Source of the DNA: a virus
IMG/VR virus record: IMGVR_UViG_3300025120_014916
Span: 1-64,000 of that record
Reading direction: 5' to 3' (one strand)
DNA: 64,000 nt
Below, piece after piece: positions 21,131-37,661 of the stretch (position 1 is the stretch's first letter; each line of letters opens with the position of its first letter). The notes below the pieces were generated by a model. It made no database searches and was not told the DNA's origin. It saw only the letters and a program-made list of their open reading frames with translations. A program made the position numbers and the translations under genes.

Positions 21131-24100
21131 TTAAAGAAGTTCTGAACCTGCATTTGTAACAACAAAGTCTAAAGCTACAAATTCTACTGTTCTTGTAGGT
21201 TGCAAGAATATTTTACCTCTGATCGTATTGTTTTCAACGTCAGCTTGCGTAGTCGTAGTCGTATCAATGACCACCTTATACCTATCAACACCACTTTGTG
21301 ATTGAATTCTTTGCAAAATAGGATTAACAAGCGCAGAGAATTTTTCTAAAGTTTCTACTCTATTAGGTTCAAATAACAAAGTATTAGCAATATTTCTAAC
21401 TTTTCTTCTAACATCAATAAGCAGCCTTCTAACGTTAACTCTATCCAATGCAGATGCGCCTTGGAGTAATGTTTTTTGTCCCCATACCGTAATACCGGTG
21501 CCTGGAAATGCAGTGATAGGATTAATATCTGCATCATAAAGATCATCTAAATTGTCTCTATTAAGTGTAACAGATGACATTTCTATAGAAGACAATGCGC
21601 CTCTTGAAAAACCAGCAGGAGCAGTCCATGGATGACCAACTACGTCATTTAAGCCGTAAGCACCCAGTACAGCAACTGAAGGTGGGACTTGAACAAATGC
21701 GCCTGTTTCCGGATCAACAGTTGTTAAGTCAGGAAAGTATGCAGCTGCAAATGAAGAGTCCAAAACGCGGTTTTTAAAATCATTAACTGTATTTAATACG
21801 TGAGGATTTTGCACTGACGCAGTAATCACTGTATTTACTGTGTCCCGCTCTTCAATATCCATGATGTAAAGTGAGTCAAATCTAGACTCAACAGCAGATA
21901 TTGCAAAGTCTGTTACAGAAGGATGCCGGATACCTGGGATTGCAAGTAATTTTATCTCTGCATCTGTTTTTGATCCCATAACATCTACAGCTTTACGATA
22001 AGCAGCAACTGTTGGACCGGATGTCTCTCCCTGCGCTGTATCTACCATTTCTCGTCTAACAGCGTTATTTGTTAACTCATACTTGTCTTTATTGAAAATG
22101 TTTGTACCGTCAAATCCGCCTTGCATAGGCAAGGTAAACTTGGCAAATTTTCTATTTGAAACTGTTTGCAAGTCTGTCGCTTTAAATTTTCTAGTTTTTG
22201 CATCTTCATCTGCAGAAATACTTCCTTGACGCATATATTCAGCACTAGTCCAACTACCTGGATTTGCTCTGGTGTTTGAACCGGTTATAACCTTAATCTT
22301 TTCTAAACTAAACCTATTGTTGTTAAATCTGTCGCAATCTAAAACTGTACCACCAGTTAAGTCTGCTGCTCCAGCATTGTTTCCAATAGCAAAAGGTGTT
22401 ACTGACTTTCTATGATTTGGAAAATGTTTGCTATAAGTTCGAATAGACTCGTCAAATGCTGCTGTTTTACTTGGATCTAAAGGTGTTGTAAATTGTTCAG
22501 TTTTCATACCCCAATATAACCCGGTATCTATAACTTGATTCAATCCTGTACCTTTTGCGACCTTTTTTCTCATTGGGAAGGGAGGCTCAACAACACGTTG
22601 AATTAAATCAGTTGTCGCGTAAACAGATCCGTTGTCTCCTGACAGTAATGAACCGCTAGAGTTAAGGTGTCTAGGCCCTCTAAATCCAAACGGAAGTGCT
22701 TCTTTGGGTACTTCTTTCTTTTTTAATGCATTTGATAATTCAACCCTAACATATCTAGACCGGCTTGGATGAACACCATCGACAATAAGTTTTTGAGATT
22801 CTAGATCATTATCAAAGTTAAAGAATATATGCTGATCACCTATTACTCTACCAATATACCTGTCTGCACCCGGGTCTAAAGAAAGACCTCTGTGGGATTC
22901 TAAAACCTTTTTGACATCGTCAGTATCATTAAACTTTCTAATAATTAGGTCAAAGCTACCATACGCTTCTGTTCTATATACTAAGTTTTCAATTGACGCC
23001 TTATATCTTTGTCCGCCCGACTCACCACTATCTAATGCAACAAGCTTGAAAAGGTCATACCCGCCTGGGGAATCAAAACCTTGTGATATCACGAAAGGTG
23101 ACTCTGCATGTGTGAATCTGTCTTGAAAGTCCTCATAATCAGCATGCTCAGCAGTTGTTGCTCCGCCTCTTACCTGAGAACCAGTTAATAAGAATGCAAT
23201 ATCTAGTTTTCCACTGTTTTCAGATCCTGCAGTTAGTGCGCCGCTACCCGTCACGTTTGCAACAGTTGGGTATATATCGTATTGTCCGTAGAGCAAGTGT
23301 CCTTTTTCTTCTATCTTAAGTGGGTCTTTGTTAAATACATCGACAAAATAGCTAGTTGAAGTCATATCAAAAGATGCTGTTACGATTGTTGGATTTGATG
23401 CATCGCCTTTGAAACCGTTCATTAACATAACAAAGTCTTGTGATGATAAGTCAACTGAACCGGTTACACCACCTTTTCGACCCATAAGATCACCAGAAGT
23501 AGCAATTGCAGTGTCTGTGACGCCTGGCGCGCCTGGTGCAGCCATGTTGTTTCCACTAAGATGTAGTATAACGCCACTTGGTGCTAAAAGAACACCACGA
23601 AGAATAGGAACAGCGCCGCCGGCCTCACCAGACAATGCACCGTCATTTGCCATTGTACCACCAGTATCATCAATTCGAATTGGATTTCCGTATGCGCCGT
23701 TACCCGCCAAACCTGGGTTTCTTGCCTTTATTGTAATTTTTCCGTCGCCCGTGCCTTCTTCAAATGTAATACGACTTATAAGATTTGCAACGTCAGCACC
23801 CTGTGTTGTTAATGCTTGGTCGACGCCTGTATTGATTAGCGCTAACAATTGAGTTCTAACTGTATTAGCAACAGATGGGGTTGATAAGGTCAATCCGCTT
23901 GTACCTACTCCAATTGTTCTAGCAGCAGCTGATCCAGCTGCTTGAGCTACAGCGCCAGTAGAATCACCGGTATTTAGCTTAATATATAACGCTGCTGCTC
24001 CACCTGGCCCAGGAACACCAAAGTGAGGAATAGATATCTGAACTTCACTATTCTGGGCACCAACTAGTAAGTTAATTGCATCAACTCTAGTTGCAAATGT

Positions 24101-24583
24101 ATTTGCTTGTTGTATTCCAGCCTCAGAAAAGATTGTGCTTCCGTTCGATTCAGACATGAATGTGCCTAAGAAATATGTACGACCTTTAACACCTGCTGTC
24201 TCATTTGAGAATGGGTTGTTACCTAGGAAGCCGCTGTCTTGAACTATTTTGTCGCCTACTGAGAATCCCGCGTTTGTTACAATGCCTGTTCCCGAGTCTC
24301 TCTTTTTTCCGTCTCCAATCCCCAATACTCTAATATAAGTTCCAGCTCGTGATGATCTCATCCACTCGTTAACAGCAAGAGGGCCAAACTTTTTACCGTC
24401 AGTAGCGCCAAAAATTGTAACAAAGTCTGAAAACGATCCAAATGTCAAGGGGACAAATGCTGGGCCTTCAACTGATGTACCGATGACACCTGCTGGGACA
24501 CCTTGAGGAGTTTGTGGAGTTGGACCAGAAAGATCTATTTCTCTTGTGCTGACTCCAGCTGATTTGAATGTTAATTCTGCCAT
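21131..24583 (-). CDS. Tail sheath protein (paralogue A, 1150 aa)
   Basis: SAGVSTREID, GVIGTSVEGPAFVP, C-terminal PWTAPAGFSRG, INPI, WGQKTL, LDRVNVRRLL, LFEPN. Confidence 0.93.
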   Translation of the reverse strand: MAELTFKSAGVSTREIDLSGPTPQTPQGVPAGVIGTSVEGPAFVPLTFGSFSDFVTIFGATDGKKFGPLAVNEWMRSSRAGTYIRVLGIGDGKKRDSGTGIVTNAGFSVGDKIVQDSGFLGNNPFSNETAGVKGRTYFLGTFMSESNGSTIFSEAGIQQANTFATRVDAINLLVGAQNSEVQISIPHFGVPGPGGAAALYIKLNTGDSTGAVAQAAGSAAARTIGVGTSGLTLSTPSVANTVRTQLLALINTGVDQALTTQGADVANLISRITFEEGTGDGKITIKARNPGLAGNGAYGNPIRIDDTGGTMANDGALSGEAGGAVPILRGVLLAPSGVILHLSGNNMAAPGAPGVTDTAIATSGDLMGRKGGVTGSVDLSSQDFVMLMNGFKGDASNPTIVTASFDMTSTSYFVDVFNKDPLKIEEKGHLLYGQYDIYPTVANVTGSGALTAGSENSGKLDIAFLLTGSQVRGGATTAEHADYEDFQDRFTHAESPFVISQGFDSPGGYDLFKLVALDSGESGGQRYKASIENLVYRTEAYGSFDLIIRKFNDTDDVKKVLESHRGLSLDPGADRYIGRVIGDQHIFFNFDNDLESQKLIVDGVHPSRSRYVRVELSNALKKKEVPKEALPFGFRGPRHLNSSGSLLSGDNGSVYATTDLIQRVVEPPFPMRKKVAKGTGLNQVIDTGLYWGMKTEQFTTPLDPSKTAAFDESIRTYSKHFPNHRKSVTPFAIGNNAGAADLTGGTVLDCDRFNNNRFSLEKIKVITGSNTRANPGSWTSAEYMRQGSISADEDAKTRKFKATDLQTVSNRKFAKFTLPMQGGFDGTNIFNKDKYELTNNAVRREMVDTAQGETSGPTVAAYRKAVDVMGSKTDAEIKLLAIPGIRHPSVTDFAISAVESRFDSLYIMDIEERDTVNTVITASVQNPHVLNTVNDFKNRVLDSSFAAAYFPDLTTVDPETGAFVQVPPSVAVLGAYGLNDVVGHPWTAPAGFSRGALSSIEMSSVTLNRDNLDDLYDADINPITAFPGTGITVWGQKTLLQGASALDRVNVRRLLIDVRRKVRNIANTLLFEPNRVETLEKFSALVNPILQRIQSQSGVDRYKVVIDTTTTTQADVENNTIRGKIFLQPTRTVEFVALDFVVTNAGSELL

Positions 24584-24619: not shown

Positions 24620-27600
24620 TTACTCAAAACTAACACCTGAATTTGTAATAATAAAATCCATTGCAATAAATTCTATTGCTCTTGTTGGTACTAATATTAT
24701 TTTACCGTTAAGTCTATTTTGTTCAACATCTAATTGCGTGTTATTTGATGCATCCATAACTACTCTAAATTGATCAACACCTTGTTGAACCTGAATATTT
24801 GATAAAGCTGGCGTAACTTCTGCAACAAATCTATTTCTTGTGCTAGGCGTATTTTGTTCAAATACTATTCTATTTGCAATATCAGAAACTATCCGTTTTA
24901 CTTCTAGGAGCATTCTTCTAACATTTACTCTGTCAAGTGCTGATCTAGATTGTTGAAGTGTTTTTTGTCCGAATATAACAAAAGGACCGGTAGGAAAGTT
25001 TGCAATAGGATTAATTCTTGCTTCGTATAGGATGTTTCTATCTTCAGTATTTAATCTAACTTCTGTATTAATAACTTCATTTAGTGCGCCTCTATTAAAT
25101 CCTGCAGGAGCAAACCACGGATATGCAATTGCGTCGTTATACGCTAATGCACCTAGTGCAGCAACTGACGCCGGCATATTGACTGCATCACCATTGATTC
25201 TGTCGTTTTTAATAACATCAGGAAAATATGTTGCAACATAATTGTTGTCAATAGCACGACCATCAAATTGTTCCACGGTTTTTCTAACATTTGGTCTTGT
25301 TGTACTATCATCAAATATTGTGTTCAGATTGTCATCGTATGCGTTGATATCCATTATATATATTGCTTTACTATATTCTTTTGCCAATTGGCCTATATGA
25401 TCTGTTACATAATTGGAACGAATGCCCGGAGTTGCAATAACATTGACTCTTGAAGCTAGCGGATCAGTTATAATCTTTCCAGCAGTTTTATAAGATGAAA
25501 TAATATTATTGTCATCACCTTGACCTGACGTATATCCAGTACCGTTACTAGAATTAAATATTTTAAGAGGCCCATGGTCAGATCCAGCTGCTTTTCCGCC
25601 GGCTGCTGAATCATTTGAGCTCGCCTTGTCATTCATAAGTCGCATATCACGATCAAGAATATTTAAACCGTCAAACCCACCATACATAATGTTTGTAAAT
25701 TTAAGATAATCTGTAAATCTATTAAAATATTTATATTCTGTTGATGCCATCAATGAAGCAAATGTTAATCTTCGCGTAAAGCCTACATCAACAACTGTGC
25801 TGTTTGGAGAAACTAGCTCTGCGTTTCTAATATATGCTGCTTCTCTCATATGTTCGTTTGCAGATCCTGTTATTTCATTTTTAAGTGCATCTTCAAGATT
25901 TGCTGTTGCGTCAGACTGATTATTTAAACACACACGCGCTAAAGTAAATTTATTATTATTAAATGCATCTGCACCCGAACCTGTAACAAGTGTGTCTAGT
26001 TTTTGAATTCCTAGTAACTTTGAATAACTTTCAATAATTTTATTGACCCCACCGTATCCGTTTGGATAAAGTGCAGGCTGACCAATACTTCCAGTTAATC
26101 CTATTCTTTGTGTTTTAACACCCCAGAAATATCTATTATCTGAAAGTTCTAAAGAGCCTGGTTGTCCTGTAAACGTTGGACTGGATGCAACCTTTCCTTT
26201 TGTAGCTTTAAAAGTAAAAGGAATCGGAGGTACGATTGAATGTGTTATTTGTGCATCATTCGCAGTACCCGCCGCAACAAATGATAGTCGTGAACGATTT
26301 GAACCCATGGAAAGTACAGCAGTACCGTCAGTTAGATTGTCATTTAACTTAAGAACAGGTAGGCCTCTAAACCCAAAAGGAAGCGAACTTTTTGGAATTA
26401 ATCCATCTTCTACAGCCGAATTCATTATTATTCTAACATATGAAGACCGGTTTGGTCGCATACCAGATACAACAGCTCTTTTTTCTGATTCAGTGGCAGC
26501 ATCAAAGTTGTAGTAAGCTTTCATGTCACCTATTTTTTTACCTACATAATCGTCGCTGGCTGGATTTAAAGTACACAAGGAATACATTTCAAGAATGTTC
26601 ATATCCCGGTCATTGTCTCGAAGGTCTCTAACTAGAACAGAAAAAGTACCGTACGGATCTTTTATATTCGTTGATCTTCTAATGTTTGATATACTAATTT
26701 TTACTCTTTTGTTGCCTATTTCACCGTCATCTAACGCTTCAAAGTGAAAAAGATCGTATTCGTTTGCACCAAATGGCTGTGATATAAATGAAGTTGTTCT
26801 AGCTGTTTGATATCTTGTTTTAAAGTTTCCAAAAAGATCTCTAAAAGACGTAGTTGAAAGACCGCTATTTGCACTAGTTCCTTCTGAACCTGATGCTATA
26901 ATAACAGAATAATTTGTAGCAGCTGATGGGTCATGCTTTACTTTTGCAATTTCAGATTCAACTGGAAAATCTAAATAGAGGAAATGCTGTGTTTCCTCAA
27001 ATCTATCTGGGTTTGTATTTAAAACTTTTGCAACATAGTATTCGCTGGTAGGATCAAGTGATGCTGTAACGATCTTTATTCCAGGTTTTCCTTCGTCAGA
27101 TGAAAACGAAGCACCTTGTGACGACGATATAACTAGTTTAAATGTACCTTGTATATCTGTTCCATTGTATGATTTAATTGCTGCGACGTCGTTAGTTGTA
27201 GACGTACCAGAATAACTAGCATCGTGGCTTAAAATTTCTATTCGTGAAGCTGTTGTTGGAAAAATTGCAGCACGAACAAGATTTACTTCGAGCGGATCAG
27301 GAAAAGAATTATTGTCTGTAAATCTTAAATCTCCAACACCTTCTTCAGACGCTAATACTTCGTGTGTTGCAGCAATAAATTGAACTGCGCCTCTATGCCT
27401 ACCTAATGTATCTGGCGCGCCGGCAAGTGTACCTTCTATAACATAGCCGGCGTTCTTAACAGTTCCTGCTAATTCTGTTGTCTGTATATCTGCAATTGAG
27501 TTGTTTGCGCCTGCTCCTAAAACTCTAATATATGTTAAAGCAGTCTTGTGCTTAAGAAAAGCATCAGCTGCATAAGGTCCGAATCTATCCGGATCCAAGG

Positions 27601-27775
27601 TGCCAAACTTAAATTCAAAGTCTGAAAAAGATCCAACTGTCACAGGCACAAAAGCAGGGCCCCTCTCAGCAGTCCCAATAACTCCACCGGGGACGCCTTC
27701 AATAGTTGTTTCTCTTGCACTTAGATCAATTTCTCTTTCAAAAAATCCGGGTGATCTGAATGTTTGTTCTTTCAT
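24620..27775 (-). CDS. Tail sheath protein (paralogue B, 1051 aa)
   Basis: SPGFFEREID, GVIGTAERGPAFVP, PWFAPAGFNRG, INPI, FGQKTL, LDRVNVRRML, VFEQN. Confidence 0.93.
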   Translation of the reverse strand: MKEQTFRSPGFFEREIDLSARETTIEGVPGGVIGTAERGPAFVPVTVGSFSDFEFKFGTLDPDRFGPYAADAFLKHKTALTYIRVLGAGANNSIADIQTTELAGTVKNAGYVIEGTLAGAPDTLGRHRGAVQFIAATHEVLASEEGVGDLRFTDNNSFPDPLEVNLVRAAIFPTTASRIEILSHDASYSGTSTTNDVAAIKSYNGTDIQGTFKLVISSSQGASFSSDEGKPGIKIVTASLDPTSEYYVAKVLNTNPDRFEETQHFLYLDFPVESEIAKVKHDPSAATNYSVIIASGSEGTSANSGLSTTSFRDLFGNFKTRYQTARTTSFISQPFGANEYDLFHFEALDDGEIGNKRVKISISNIRRSTNIKDPYGTFSVLVRDLRDNDRDMNILEMYSLCTLNPASDDYVGKKIGDMKAYYNFDAATESEKRAVVSGMRPNRSSYVRIIMNSAVEDGLIPKSSLPFGFRGLPVLKLNDNLTDGTAVLSMGSNRSRLSFVAAGTANDAQITHSIVPPIPFTFKATKGKVASSPTFTGQPGSLELSDNRYFWGVKTQRIGLTGSIGQPALYPNGYGGVNKIIESYSKLLGIQKLDTLVTGSGADAFNNNKFTLARVCLNNQSDATANLEDALKNEITGSANEHMREAAYIRNAELVSPNSTVVDVGFTRRLTFASLMASTEYKYFNRFTDYLKFTNIMYGGFDGLNILDRDMRLMNDKASSNDSAAGGKAAGSDHGPLKIFNSSNGTGYTSGQGDDNNIISSYKTAGKIITDPLASRVNVIATPGIRSNYVTDHIGQLAKEYSKAIYIMDINAYDDNLNTIFDDSTTRPNVRKTVEQFDGRAIDNNYVATYFPDVIKNDRINGDAVNMPASVAALGALAYNDAIAYPWFAPAGFNRGALNEVINTEVRLNTEDRNILYEARINPIANFPTGPFVIFGQKTLQQSRSALDRVNVRRMLLEVKRIVSDIANRIVFEQNTPSTRNRFVAEVTPALSNIQVQQGVDQFRVVMDASNNTQLDVEQNRLNGKIILVPTRAIEFIAMDFIITNSGVSFE

Positions 27776-32391: not shown

Positions 32392-32420
32392 AAAAAAAGA
32401 CACCCACAAGGGGTGTCTTT
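32392..32420 (-). terminator. Rho-independent terminator
   Basis: AAAGACACCC-CTTGT-GGGTGTCTTT followed by TTTT. Confidence 0.88.
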
Positions 32421-32469: not shown

Positions 32470-33288
32470 TTATTGCAATCCAAATTCAAACTCTTTCCAA
32501 ATCAGCGCGCCACCTACGTCGGAGTCGTGTCTGTGGAACCAGTATGGCGTTACAACTTCAGCATCGTCAAAGCTATAAGCTACAGCACCAGTGCCTGCTA
32601 CTCCGTCAATAGTATATGTTACTGCGCCTGCTGCAGATACCATAACTTTAAGTGTATGAGTTCCACCATTTGCCCAGTTTCCGGCGCCGTCGCCACCGCC
32701 AGATGTGATATCTGTTACAACTGTACTGGCATTATTAATAATTGTTGTGGTTTTAATATCGCCTGAAACTACTGATAGTGCAGCTAGCTCATCTAATGCG
32801 TCTGGACTGGCGTTGTGTGCCTCAACCTTTGCAAAGCCGCATCGAATATCATCAAACCCGGAAACATCTTCTATTGAAAACTTAACAGACATAAAGAATG
32901 CTGGAGATGTGCCTACTGTAAAATAGTCTTTGTTTAGTTTGCCTAAGGCTGCTACTGATCTACCTCGAATAGCCCAGCCTTCATTATTTGTTTGATCGCC
33001 TGATACATTTAACCCTGCTACATTTAATGCTGGTGCTAAAAGCGTTTGAGTTCCAATAGCATGTACTGCTAGTGTATTACCACATCTAAATCCCCATTGA
33101 TTAATTTCTCCGGTTGCGCCGGAGAAAATTGTCCCGTCTGATTGTGGATCTAAACTTACTTGTGCACCTAAATCAAATTTAGTTACGCGTATGTCACTAG
33201 TAGTAAATGTAACTGTTGACGCACAGTTGACACCTGATCCTGTTTTTTGAATCAGACCTTTTGAGTCTGTGATTTCTATTGCTGGCAT
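32470..33288 (-). CDS. Hypothetical Gly/Ala/Thr-rich beta-structured protein, possible capsid decoration or fibre protein
   Basis: MPAIEITDSKGLIQKTGSG... Monocistronic, with its own leader, AGGAG RBS and terminator. Confidence 0.75.
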   Translation of the reverse strand: MPAIEITDSKGLIQKTGSGVNCASTVTFTTSDIRVTKFDLGAQVSLDPQSDGTIFSGATGEINQWGFRCGNTLAVHAIGTQTLLAPALNVAGLNVSGDQTNNEGWAIRGRSVAALGKLNKDYFTVGTSPAFFMSVKFSIEDVSGFDDIRCGFAKVEAHNASPDALDELAALSVVSGDIKTTTIINNASTVVTDITSGGGDGAGNWANGGTHTLKVMVSAAGAVTYTIDGVAGTGAVAYSFDDAEVVTPYWFHRHDSDVGGALIWKEFEFGLQ

Positions 33289-33325
33289 AATTTTCTCCTA
33301 TTTTTTAGATTTGTTTTAGAGTTTA

Positions 33326-33382
33326 CTTGTTCGCAAGATTCCGTCACGCTGGCGAGGTCAGCTTTATGCAATGTGTCGGGCC
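33326..33382 (-). ncRNA. Candidate structured cis-regulatory RNA (pseudoknot-like) in the 5' leader
   Basis: GC-rich island in an AT-rich intergenic region. CCGACAC/GUGACGG (one A-A mismatch) encloses GCUG-ACCUCGC-CAGC, and UUGCA can pair with downstream UGCGA. Confidence 0.5.
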
Positions 33383-33427
33383 TACTATTATATATTACTT
33401 AAGAATGCATTTAATTACAACAAATGA

Positions 33428-33769: not shown

Positions 33770-33806
33770 TTTTATTTCTCCTATGAAATTATTAATTAAT
33801 ACATAT

Positions 33807-33814
33807 AATTATAA
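33807..33814. promoter_or_regulatory. Palindromic ATAATTAT motif between divergent genes
   Basis: Lies 37 nt from both the 33769 (-) and 33852 (+) start codons. Confidence 0.4.
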
Positions 33815-33851
33815 CGTCAAAACAAAAATTTTAAAGGAATATAGAAATATT

Positions 33852-34202
33852 ATGAAGCCTATTATTATTAAGTCAAATCTAATCACAAAAGTGCTCTCTG
33901 TCTACATAGACGTCTGCGCCATTACATTATACCCATTTATAGTAATTAACGAAGCTTGTGATCATCCTGTTATCATGAACCATGAAAAGATTCATTTAAA
34001 GCAACAAAGTGAGCTCTGGATCATTCCTTTTTATGTTCTATATGTATGGTATTGGCTTAAAGGAAGGATGCAAGGAATGGACAACCACGATGCTTATATG
34101 TCTATTCCGTTTGAAAAAGAAGCATATGAACATCAATACGATTTTGAGTATATTGAGAACAGAAAACCCGGGTCATGGAAAAGTTATATTAATTTAACTT
34201 AA
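33852..34202 (+). CDS. Small membrane-associated HExxH putative metalloprotease
   Basis: AITLYPFI...NHEKIHLKQQ...PFYVLYVWYW...AYMSIPFEKEAY. ATG at 33852 follows AAGGA; the track starts it at 33783. The only credible plus-strand gene. Confidence 0.75.
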   Translation: MKPIIIKSNLITKVLSVYIDVCAITLYPFIVINEACDHPVIMNHEKIHLKQQSELWIIPFYVLYVWYWLKGRMQGMDNHDAYMSIPFEKEAYEHQYDFEYIENRKPGSWKSYINLT

Positions 34203-35711: not shown

Positions 35712-37661
35712 TTAGATAATTTCCATATCTAAACATGTAACTGTTCCGTAGAAGTCGGCACGAACCATTTTCTTTCCGTAACGAGTCATAACACCTTTTC
35801 TTGGGGTGAAATCCTCTGGAGCGAAGATGGTAGGTGTAACAATCAATGGTACGTAAGGAGCATAGACGTATCCAGACTCTAAGTAAGAACCACCTTTATA
35901 TCCAACAAGAATCTTGTTACGTGGGAAGTAAGGATCTTTATAAACAGTAAATCTGTTAGTAAGTGATCCAATAGCTTCAGCACCAAGACTGAATGGGGCA
36001 GCAACTTGACCTTGACCATCAATTTTAATTGAAGGCTTGTAAAGTACAGAAGCTTCGAAGATTGTCGCGACTTCAGGGGAAACTACGATGAAGTTTGCAC
36101 TTCCACGAAGAGTCTTTCTGTGAATCTCATTAGCAACGTCGATAATGGTCTCAACAAGAGTCTCATACCATTCGCGAACTGTACCAGTAAAAGTCGGACT
36201 CATTGACAAAGAAGAAGCTAATTCTTGAATTGCCCCTGTTCTTTTGTTAACAAATCTACCTGGCGCACGTGACCAAAAGAAGTTTGCACCTTTTGCTTCA
36301 ACCAAGAGGTCATTAAGAATCTCACGATCGATTTCTAATGCAATCTGCTCTGAAAGAATCTGAGTCAATTCAACTTCAGCGTCCAAAGAGTGATAAGCAT
36401 TAAGATCTTGTGCAAGTTCTGGGGACCAACGAGCTCTTAACTTACGTGTTTGAGCTGTTACCGCAATAGATTCGATCTTAATGTCGATCTCGGGTATGAT
36501 TGGTGTAGGATCAGATCCGGAGAAGCTAGACTCAAAGCTTGGAATTGTAACAACACCACCTGTACCACCCTCGGCAGTTAGACCGTCAGCTTTAGGGTAA
36601 GCTACAATTGTAATGCCACCGGTGAATAATGCATCAGCTGAGGTACTAACAGTACCAGGACAAACAAACAGCACGTCCACAGCAGCCGAATCGGCTGATG
36701 TTCTTTGAGTCCATGTTGATCCATCCCAAGATCCTAATTGATTAAGTCTACGTACGTTTAATACGTTCGTACCTTGCTGAATAGTAGATTTAACTTTAGT
36801 AATACCACCGGAACTAGTTCCTCCAGCTGAATCAAGCAGTGATACACCTTTAACAAGTGTTTTGTCAAAGCTAGTTAGCTTTGATATATCTGCAATTACA
36901 AAGTGATAATTTGTGCTGTTATCAACAATATCAGCAATAATTTGCGGATCATGTTGCAATAGCGCCAAGTTTTTACTATTTGTAGTTTCAATCTGATTAC
37001 CAATCGCAAAAACACCAGTTGTTGCATGGTATGCACCAGCAGCTGTTGCGTGTGCTGCAGCAATTTGTCCAGCAGCATGACCGGAGATTGCGTGTCCTGA
37101 ACCAGTAACATATGCTTTTGAATATGTTGAACCAGCTAAGTCATACATACCGCCGATTGCGTCAGCACCTGACTGAATACTGTTTCCACTTGGTGAGCCA
37201 TAAAGTGAGTTACCTTTTTCAAAAGTAGCTGCTGTATTTCCTGTTAAAGCTGCGTTTCCGAGTGTACTTCCTGCAGAACCGGCATCTTCACCACCTACTT
37301 GACTTCCATAAGAATAGTCTAAGTAGAAAAGAAGTCCACTTGGAAGACTCATTGGCTGAATAGATACTAGTTCATTAGCAACTAAACCACCAAATACACG
37401 GCGTACAATTGGAAATGCGATGTTACTAAAACCATCGATTGCGCCTGCGCCACCAGATCCGTTACCCATTGTGTTAGCTTCTCTAAGTACTTGAGCAGCT
37501 TGATTTTCAAGCAAACGAGCCATATTCTCGCGCTTGGTTTCTTGAAGGCCACGTAACAATCCTGTTCGTGTCCATTTGTTCATAAGTCGGCTACCGTCTT
37601 GACCCACGTTTCTATCGCGGATGCCCTCGGTAAGTTGACCTAATGTAAATTCTCTAGACAT
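35712..37661 (-). CDS. Major capsid protein, T4 gp23-like, with a large insertion
   Basis: LLENQ, FPIVRRVFGGLVANELVSIQPMSLPSGLLFYL, IESIAVTAQTRKLRARWSPELAQDLNAYHSLDAEVELT, YAPYVPL, FTPRKGVMTRYG. Confidence 0.96.
   Translation of the reverse strand: MSREFTLGQLTEGIRDRNVGQDGSRLMNKWTRTGLLRGLQETKRENMARLLENQAAQVLREANTMGNGSGGAGAIDGFSNIAFPIVRRVFGGLVANELVSIQPMSLPSGLLFYLDYSYGSQVGGEDAGSAGSTLGNAALTGNTAATFEKGNSLYGSPSGNSIQSGADAIGGMYDLAGSTYSKAYVTGSGHAISGHAAGQIAAAHATAAGAYHATTGVFAIGNQIETTNSKNLALLQHDPQIIADIVDNSTNYHFVIADISKLTSFDKTLVKGVSLLDSAGGTSSGGITKVKSTIQQGTNVLNVRRLNQLGSWDGSTWTQRTSADSAAVDVLFVCPGTVSTSADALFTGGITIVAYPKADGLTAEGGTGGVVTIPSFESSFSGSDPTPIIPEIDIKIESIAVTAQTRKLRARWSPELAQDLNAYHSLDAEVELTQILSEQIALEIDREILNDLLVEAKGANFFWSRAPGRFVNKRTGAIQELASSLSMSPTFTGTVREWYETLVETIIDVANEIHRKTLRGSANFIVVSPEVATIFEASVLYKPSIKIDGQGQVAAPFSLGAEAIGSLTNRFTVYKDPYFPRNKILVGYKGGSYLESGYVYAPYVPLIVTPTIFAPEDFTPRKGVMTRYGKKMVRADFYGTVTCLDMEII

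Follow-up and report, generated by a model that had tools for sequence, protein, structure and literature searches.

Introduction

The rpsO (S15) and alpha operon (S4) messages of Escherichia coli carry translational operator pseudoknots that are bound by the product of their own gene; both systems are cellular. In bacteriophage T4, the pseudoknot of gene 32 sits well upstream, with the start codon outside it, and nucleates the cooperative binding of gp32. Mention of this leader pseudoknot is made in PMC10690425. Another structured leader, Mu-gpT-DE RNA (Rfam RF03012), precedes a phage head gene.

The closest described fold is that of the minimal HDV-like ribozymes, which are almost confined to tailed phages (PMC10879173). 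From 5' to 3', these consist of P1 (starting with G), J1/2, P2, a 3-bp P3, U, CC, NCGY, and P3', followed by P1', GG, an L4 of 5-8 nt, CNRA, and P2' (PMC10879173). The P1.1 positions covary in theta ribozymes (PMC10879173). According to structures, fast natural HDV-like ribozymes tolerate one non-Watson-Crick P1.1 pair (PMC13635239).

The window analyzed here is a stretch of 64,000 nt from the uncultured virus record IMGVR_UViG_3300025120_014916. An original prediction, made from the letters of the window, described a compact pseudoknotted leader, HDV-like in its strand order, that precedes a virion gene. In this study, we describe this element as a structured RNA that appears to open a late phage mRNA and that was previously uncatalogued in the sources checked.

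Materials and methods

Homologues of the leader were collected by exact-pattern scans of viral and metagenome contigs, each scan fixing different parts of the motif, followed by script filtering. Because all copies were recovered via nucleotide patterns, the sample is biased towards the conserved blocks. The distinct cores were aligned (alignment A1), and a covariance model, R1, was built from them. Cultured phages (INPHARED) were searched by blastn and tblastn, and 185,579 prokaryote genomes were scanned. Rfam 15 was searched at the gathering threshold and at E <= 10 with queries of 3 kb and 121 nt as well as four variant loci. Downstream proteins were compared with Pfam and PHROGs.

Results

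The leader sequence quoted in the original prediction is present on the minus strand of the window, at 33382-33327, and the leader reaches the AUG at 33288. It occurs as a single copy in the window and in the 136-kb record to which the window belongs; R1 also finds one. Folded alone, the 107-nt leader gave -13.7 kcal/mol, with z = 0.03 against shuffles. The single-copy fold is thus uninformative, and the case for structure rests wholly on comparative evidence.

The record has a Gp23-type major capsid protein whose closest counterparts belong to distant T4-like myoviruses, namely Flavobacterium phage immuto, Microcystis phage Mel-JY01, and Rhodothermus phage RM378. In this protein (35712-37661, minus strand, 649 aa), the Gp23 domain matches residues 382-639 only, and the N-terminal 380 residues are without a family match. 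A 139-aa ORF on the plus strand (33783-34202) lies within the minus-strand structural module and has a PHROG protease match (phrog_15610, E = 5e-25). Two pairs of direct repeats (21596-21679 / 25085-25168 and 24421-24512 / 27616-27707), 72-73% identical and 3.2-3.5 kb apart, hint that a large block of genes was duplicated in tandem, giving paralogous structural genes.

The pattern scans yielded 66 distinct homologous cores, every one immediately upstream of a gene and 16-41 nt before an AUG having a Shine-Dalgarno sequence. The element occurs in dozens of uncultured aquatic phages. True copies scored 57-84 bits on R1, and nothing lay between those and E = 0.1. Neither the cultured phages in INPHARED nor the 185,579 prokaryote genomes held a true copy; 14 exact-pattern matches in the latter were chance, all at 29 bits or less on R1. 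The original prediction had recognized no named family, and in agreement with it, Rfam 15 gave nothing at the element with any of the queries at the gathering threshold or at E <= 10. A match to Mu-gpT-DE (RF03012) was at chance level (11.9 bits) and covered the Shine-Dalgarno/AUG stretch only. In the literature searched, no occurrence of the invariant strings of the element was found.

Helix P1 is formed by CCGACAC (33373-33379, minus strand) and GUGACGG (33341-33347, minus strand). It encloses the P3 hairpin (33348-33362, minus strand), which consists of GCUG (33362-33359), loop L3 ACCUCGC, and CAGC (33351-33348). Alignment A1 of the 66 distinct homologues shows pairing in 98.9% of its cells for P1 (7 bp) and P3 (4 bp). 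Compensatory changes on both sides were found in 7 of the 11 P1/P3 pairs (107 cells versus 25 in shuffles), and the covariation score was 0.497, compared with 0.191 after shuffling and at most 0.114 with slid partners. Pairs 3-6 of P1 and pairs 1-3 of P3 covary. Pairs 2 and 7 of P1 are invariant C-G; at the first pair, 65 of 66 copies have C-G and the remaining one has U-G. RNAalifold independently gave the same two helices. The window copy has one A·A mismatch in P1, where a close relative has U-A. Both helices of the original prediction thus hold up in the homologous leaders.

The same could not be said of its P2, formed by UUGCA and UGCGA, for which 5 bp are possible in just 18 of 66 copies. 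The true 3' strand of P2 is the start-codon region, 40-70 nt further downstream than UGCGA. The J1/2 loop has the sequence AUUGCAUAAA (33363-33372, minus strand), in which GCAUAA (33369-33364) is the 5' strand of P2. It is complementary to UUAUGC (33285-33290, minus strand), which includes the AUG start codon (33288-33286). Between UUAUGC and the core lies an A-rich linker of variable length (33291-33328, minus strand) carrying the Shine-Dalgarno sequence AGGAG (33299-33295). A helix of at least 5 bp between J1/2 and the start region was found in 64 of 65 scored copies, with a minimum score of 4.5. The mean best P2 helix was 6.2, versus 3.9 ± 0.9 in shuffled start regions, and 4% of the shuffles reach 6.

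Most copies pair GCAUAA with UUAUGC, which covers -2 to +4 and thus the AUG, and leave the Shine-Dalgarno sequence unpaired; some lineages lengthen the helix to GCAUAAUA/UAUUAUGC. In other lineages P2 falls in the spacer that separates the AUG from its Shine-Dalgarno sequence, as GUGAUC/GAUCAC or GUGAUU/AAUCAC. Further lineage-specific pairs are AUAAUC/GAUUAU, UAAUAA/UUAUUA, and AUGAUU/GAUCAU. At three loci, J1/2 reads CCAUAA and the message UUAUGG; the second codon changes from Pro to Val, and the P2 pairing is retained. The distance from CGAA to the AUG ranges from 16 to 41 nt across the copies. By nearest-neighbour energies, P2 by itself is weak, at about -4 to -6.6 kcal/mol and just -0.5 kcal/mol in one lineage, so any repression could be slight. 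A competing hairpin, CUUG/CAAG, had also been proposed; it reaches 4 bp in just 22 of 66 copies, and its variation is uncompensated. Of the proposed structured cis-regulatory element or switch, the structured leader is borne out by the covariation, while the alternative hairpin that was to make it a switch is not conserved.

About 20 positions of the element are invariant; these cluster in loops and junctions, whereas covariation marks the helices. The invariance of several blocks, including GGAA, is only partly independent because these were fixed in one or another pattern. AGGC (33380-33383, minus strand), unpaired and near-invariant, precedes P1 in 63 of the 66 distinct copies, though two of the scans left it unfixed; the transcript probably begins with it. 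A search for a pairing partner gave none. Pairing of AGGCC with the N-terminal Gly-Leu codons GGYCU was considered and rejected: five pairs are possible in just 51 of 92 cases, and the codons there are no more biased than those of another Gly residue.

In the scan that left L3 free, this loop read R-N-N-U-C-G-C. Its first position is A in 65 copies and G in one, never U; positions 2-3 are CC (51 copies), AC (7), UC (4), UA (2), GC (1), or AA (1). CCUC was ruled out as an anti-Shine-Dalgarno sequence, as the CC is variable. The strand that had been read as the 3' half of P2 lies in the near-invariant single strand AAUCUUG-CGAA-C (33329-33340, minus strand), which occupies the position of L4 and J4/2 in minimal HDV-like ribozymes; UGCGAAC would be the J4/2 equivalent. 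In the scan leaving the 3' tail free, UGCG was invariant and CGAA varied only to CGGA or CGAG. Over all copies, C-G-A-A is present in 64 of 66, the others having CGGA and CGAG. L3 UCGC and GCGA could form a 4-bp tertiary helix; both sides are invariant, and one A-to-G variant would keep U·G.

The strand order of the leader is P1-P2-P3-P3'-P1'-P2', a nested pseudoknot. It is thus HDV-like, as originally predicted, though with the start region as the 3' strand of P2, and the fold can be described as HDV-like in topology, a pseudoknot without P4. Segment by segment, the leader (a 7-bp P1, J1/2, P2, a 4-bp P3, A-NN-UCGC, P3', P1', AA, UCUUG, CGAA) is a near fit to the minimal forms. It shares with the minimal HDV-like and theta ribozymes the strand order, the lack of P4, the 7-bp P1, a short P3, a 7-nt L3 ending in C-G-Y, a P2 of 5-8 bp, and the occurrence in tailed phages. 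It also has C-G-A-A for C-N-R-A, equally far (7 nt) after P1, within UGCGAAC; a candidate for the catalytic C-R-A is therefore present, contrary to the original prediction.

Several features set the leader apart from the minimal HDV-like ribozymes. No conserved P1.1 was found in the 66 copies: L3 positions 2-3 vary, and the nucleotides after the P1 3' strand are always AA. The GG preceding this AA is always paired with C4 and C5, in line with the earlier remark that no GG is available for P1.1. P1 opens with C-G and not with the cleavage-site G. The 3' half of L3, U-C-G-C, fits the N-C-G-Y of the U-(P1.1)-N-C-G-Y form, but the loop opens with A rather than U, as had been noticed before. P3 has 4 bp. 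A linker of 9-41 nt bearing the Shine-Dalgarno sequence separates C-G-A-A from the 3' strand of P2, this strand is the start codon, and the sequence upstream of P1 is conserved. No Rfam HDV family matched at E <= 10 (121 nt, 3 kb, and four variant loci). With no covarying P1.1, a C-G first pair, and an A opening L3, the element was not filed as an HDV-like ribozyme.

A promoter-like box, (A/C)TAnnTA (33389-33395, minus strand), spans -12 to -6 when counted from the A of AGGCCC. Its T-11, A-10, T-7, and A-6 are conserved at 97-100% across 60 distinct upstream sequences, in which position -1 holds T or C. The box agrees with the T4 late promoter core TATAAATA; this word is not enriched in the window (14 versus 9.8 expected). 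From the fixed distance of the box and its fit to the T4 late promoter, we infer that transcription starts at about 33383, the A of AGGCCC, which would make the element 5'-terminal. The best reading is a structured core of about 57 nt at, or a few nt from, the 5' end of a phage late mRNA.

The downstream gene (32470-33288, minus strand) encodes 272 aa, with a conserved motif in residues 1-20 and a ConA-like jelly-roll body. Downstream proteins range from 75 to 309 aa and have only M-P-K-V-x-x-T-x-x-K-G-L-x-Q-x-x-G-x-G at the N-terminus in common. The synonymous differences in this motif indicate selection at the protein level. The model of the window protein is a ConA-like/PL7-like jelly roll (pLDDT 87) with a disordered N-terminal stretch of 22 residues. 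Pfam and PHROGs gave no family for the downstream proteins, and 68 further proteins carrying the N-terminal motif were found in the protein collection. Relatives with the same body, 77-81% identical from residue 27, have two other N-termini and other promoters and lack the leader, which suggests exchange of promoter, leader, and anchor as a single module. Such relatives lie at L001:637-1518, L003:2911-3729, and L004:2736-3560, and the leader is absent from all four loci of these relatives. At L001-L003, the ConA-like body follows a sigma-70-like TTGACC-N17-TATAAT promoter and an upstream terminator.

Among the N-terminal-motif genes in the collected loci, 81 of 98 have the leader. About 10 motif genes are without it; most of these begin directly behind a first gene that has the leader, one of the exceptions being on L189. 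As the leaderless motif genes are mostly second cistrons, the element sits at the transcript head. Second motif genes at L129:1228, L139:924, L181:751, L142:6106, L006:2828, and L206:735 start 10-17 nt after the leader-bearing first gene; they have a Shine-Dalgarno sequence but are themselves leaderless. Tandem pairs of small leader-bearing genes, about 540-670 nt apart, were seen on some contigs (L229:2581-3180, L256:2185-2784, L248:125-847, and L234), each gene with its own promoter box and terminator.

In the window, an intrinsic terminator (32396-32420, minus strand) closes the cassette, so that the gene is monocistronic there, as was first proposed; its other proposed attribute, that it is a virion gene, is probable. 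A terminator lies within 90 nt after the stop codon in 42 of 75 cassettes. The stem of the window terminator, AAAGACACCC / GGGTGTCTTT, recurs near-identically after unrelated cargo genes in other phage contigs, for example on L150, L178, L221, L239, and L241. Both cassette ends are thus conserved and the middle varies. Together, the collected loci show a cassette made up of promoter box, leader, 20-residue N-terminal anchor, hypervariable cargo domain, and terminator, which probably encodes a virion-surface protein.

Discussion

On comparative grounds, the leader holds as a structured cis-acting element with HDV-like strand order. We can only infer its function, whether regulatory or catalytic. 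With modest confidence, we propose a 5'-terminal pseudoknot by which initiation of translation is gated or set in a late virion-surface gene cassette. P1 encloses J1/2 and the P3 hairpin; pairing of J1/2 with the translation start region 16-41 nt downstream gives P2, and the whole is an HDV-type pseudoknot that lacks P4. P2 buries the AUG in most lineages and, in the others, the spacer that separates it from the Shine-Dalgarno sequence, which itself stays exposed within an A-rich loop. The fold would in this way set or gate initiation at the first cistron of a self-contained cassette. P2 occupancy probably relies on the tertiary core (L3 UCGC, GGAA, UGCGAAC) or on a factor bound there.

Translational control is favoured by the covariation of P1 and P3 in the 66 cores, the lineage-specific pairs of P2, the promoter box at a fixed distance, and the position at the transcript head. 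Against it, second cistrons with the same N-terminal motif manage without the leader. Invariance at about 20 positions would also be more usual in a ribozyme or a riboswitch aptamer than in a protein operator, which speaks against a translational operator. The 136-kb record has no RegA homologue, and no candidate repressor protein or ligand was found.

As in the S15 and S4 operators, the start codon or ribosome-binding region lies inside the pseudoknot, a leader hairpin loop pairs with the start-codon region, and initiation would depend on the state of the pseudoknot. Unlike in those operators, no protein is known to bind the leader, which is unrelated to them in sequence, and its gene product is conserved only in a 20-residue peptide that has few basic residues. 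Like the T4 gene 32 leader, it has a pseudoknot near the 5' end and then an unstructured A/U-rich stretch in front of a T4-type phage gene, but the gene behind the new leader is structural/lectin-like and does not encode a DNA-binding protein. Mu-gpT-DE RNA is likewise a structured leader that adjoins a structural gene and ends at the Shine-Dalgarno sequence and AUG; it differs in being a simple hairpin, not a pseudoknot, and has no sequence in common with the leader.

The element could be a new branch of the HDV fold, either self-cleaving without a canonical P1.1 and cleavage-site G or acting as a ligand- or protein-sensing translational gate. This is a minority expectation on our part. Somewhat less probable still, and in our judgment unlikely, is that the leader is a self-cleaving variant of the minimal HDV-like ribozymes. 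Cleavage would fall immediately 5' of P1 or, with P1 taken as 5 bp and GG as P1.1, 5' of G6. The resulting 5'-OH mRNA would insulate the cassette from read-through or stabilize the message, and P2 would couple folding to the start codon.

The topology agrees with self-cleavage in its strand order, 7-bp P1, lack of P4, and 7-nt L3 ending in U-C-G-C, which suits the theta descriptor N-C-G-Y. So does the C-G-A-A at exactly 7 nt after P1, where minimal forms have GG and 5-8 nt of L4 before C-N-R-A; its C was invariant in the scan leaving that stretch free. An upstream terminator is present in just 18 of 75 cassettes, so read-through transcripts are likely, and nearly all minimal HDV-like ribozymes are in tailed phages (PMC10879173). 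The variable L3 positions 2-3 face candidate partners (GG, or the AA after P1) that are fixed, so no canonical P1.1 can be drawn. Since one non-Watson-Crick pair in P1.1 is tolerated by fast natural HDV-like ribozymes (PMC13635239), catalysis by the leader may nevertheless be conceivable. P1 has C-G at its head in place of the cleavage-site G or a G·U, L3 begins with A, and the 9-41 nt between C-G-A-A and the 3' strand of P2 hold the Shine-Dalgarno sequence. The conservation of the 4 nt upstream of P1 and of the promoter-like box at a fixed distance argues further against cleavage, and with a start at the A of AGGCCC, a cut would take off only about 4 nt. Even at E = 10, no Rfam HDV model matches the 121-nt query.

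A riboswitch, in which the invariant core (L3, GGAA, UGCGAAC) would bind a small molecule or ion and shift P2 to turn translation off or on, is improbable. Some 20 invariant loop and junction positions alongside covarying helices are the usual signature of an aptamer. A marginally stable helix over the start site also resembles the expression platforms of the pseudoknot riboswitches preQ1-II and SAM-II/V. The genes behind the leader, however, are hypervariable and structural/lectin-like, with no metabolic link, and no Rfam 15 riboswitch family matches the element at E <= 10. As a rule, riboswitch classes are cellular in the first place, whereas the element is absent from the 185,579 prokaryote genomes.

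Judging by RppH and RNase E of E. coli, an mRNA is poorly protected by a 5' end with four unpaired nucleotides. A constitutive 5' structure that gates nothing, protects the mRNA end, standardizes the start region against changing cargo, and perhaps acts as a 5' homology arm for cassette exchange between phages would suit the promoter box, leader, and N-terminal 20 residues kept en bloc before unrelated cargo, the near-identical terminator behind the cassette, the ConA-like body found with three different 5' modules, and the constant place at the transcript head, but it is quite doubtful, since a homology arm requires no compensatory base changes, the four unpaired 5' nucleotides would protect little, and the start-codon pairing and the invariance of L3 and UGCGAAC are left unexplained.

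The leader adds a widespread and highly conserved family to the few phage cis-acting RNAs with strong comparative support. Links between the HDV fold and translation have so far been described for eukaryotic retrotransposons and RNA viruses; the HDV-type double-helix-stack topology of the leader, which uses the start codon as a strand, offers a directly testable link to bacterial translation initiation. Were the self-cleaving version true, the start codon as a strand of P2 would physically couple RNA folding or cleavage to translation initiation. In uncultured aquatic T4-like phages, the leader marks a mobile expression cassette that probably places many unrelated surface domains on virions, and it may therefore serve as a handy sequence tag for host-interaction genes in viromes.
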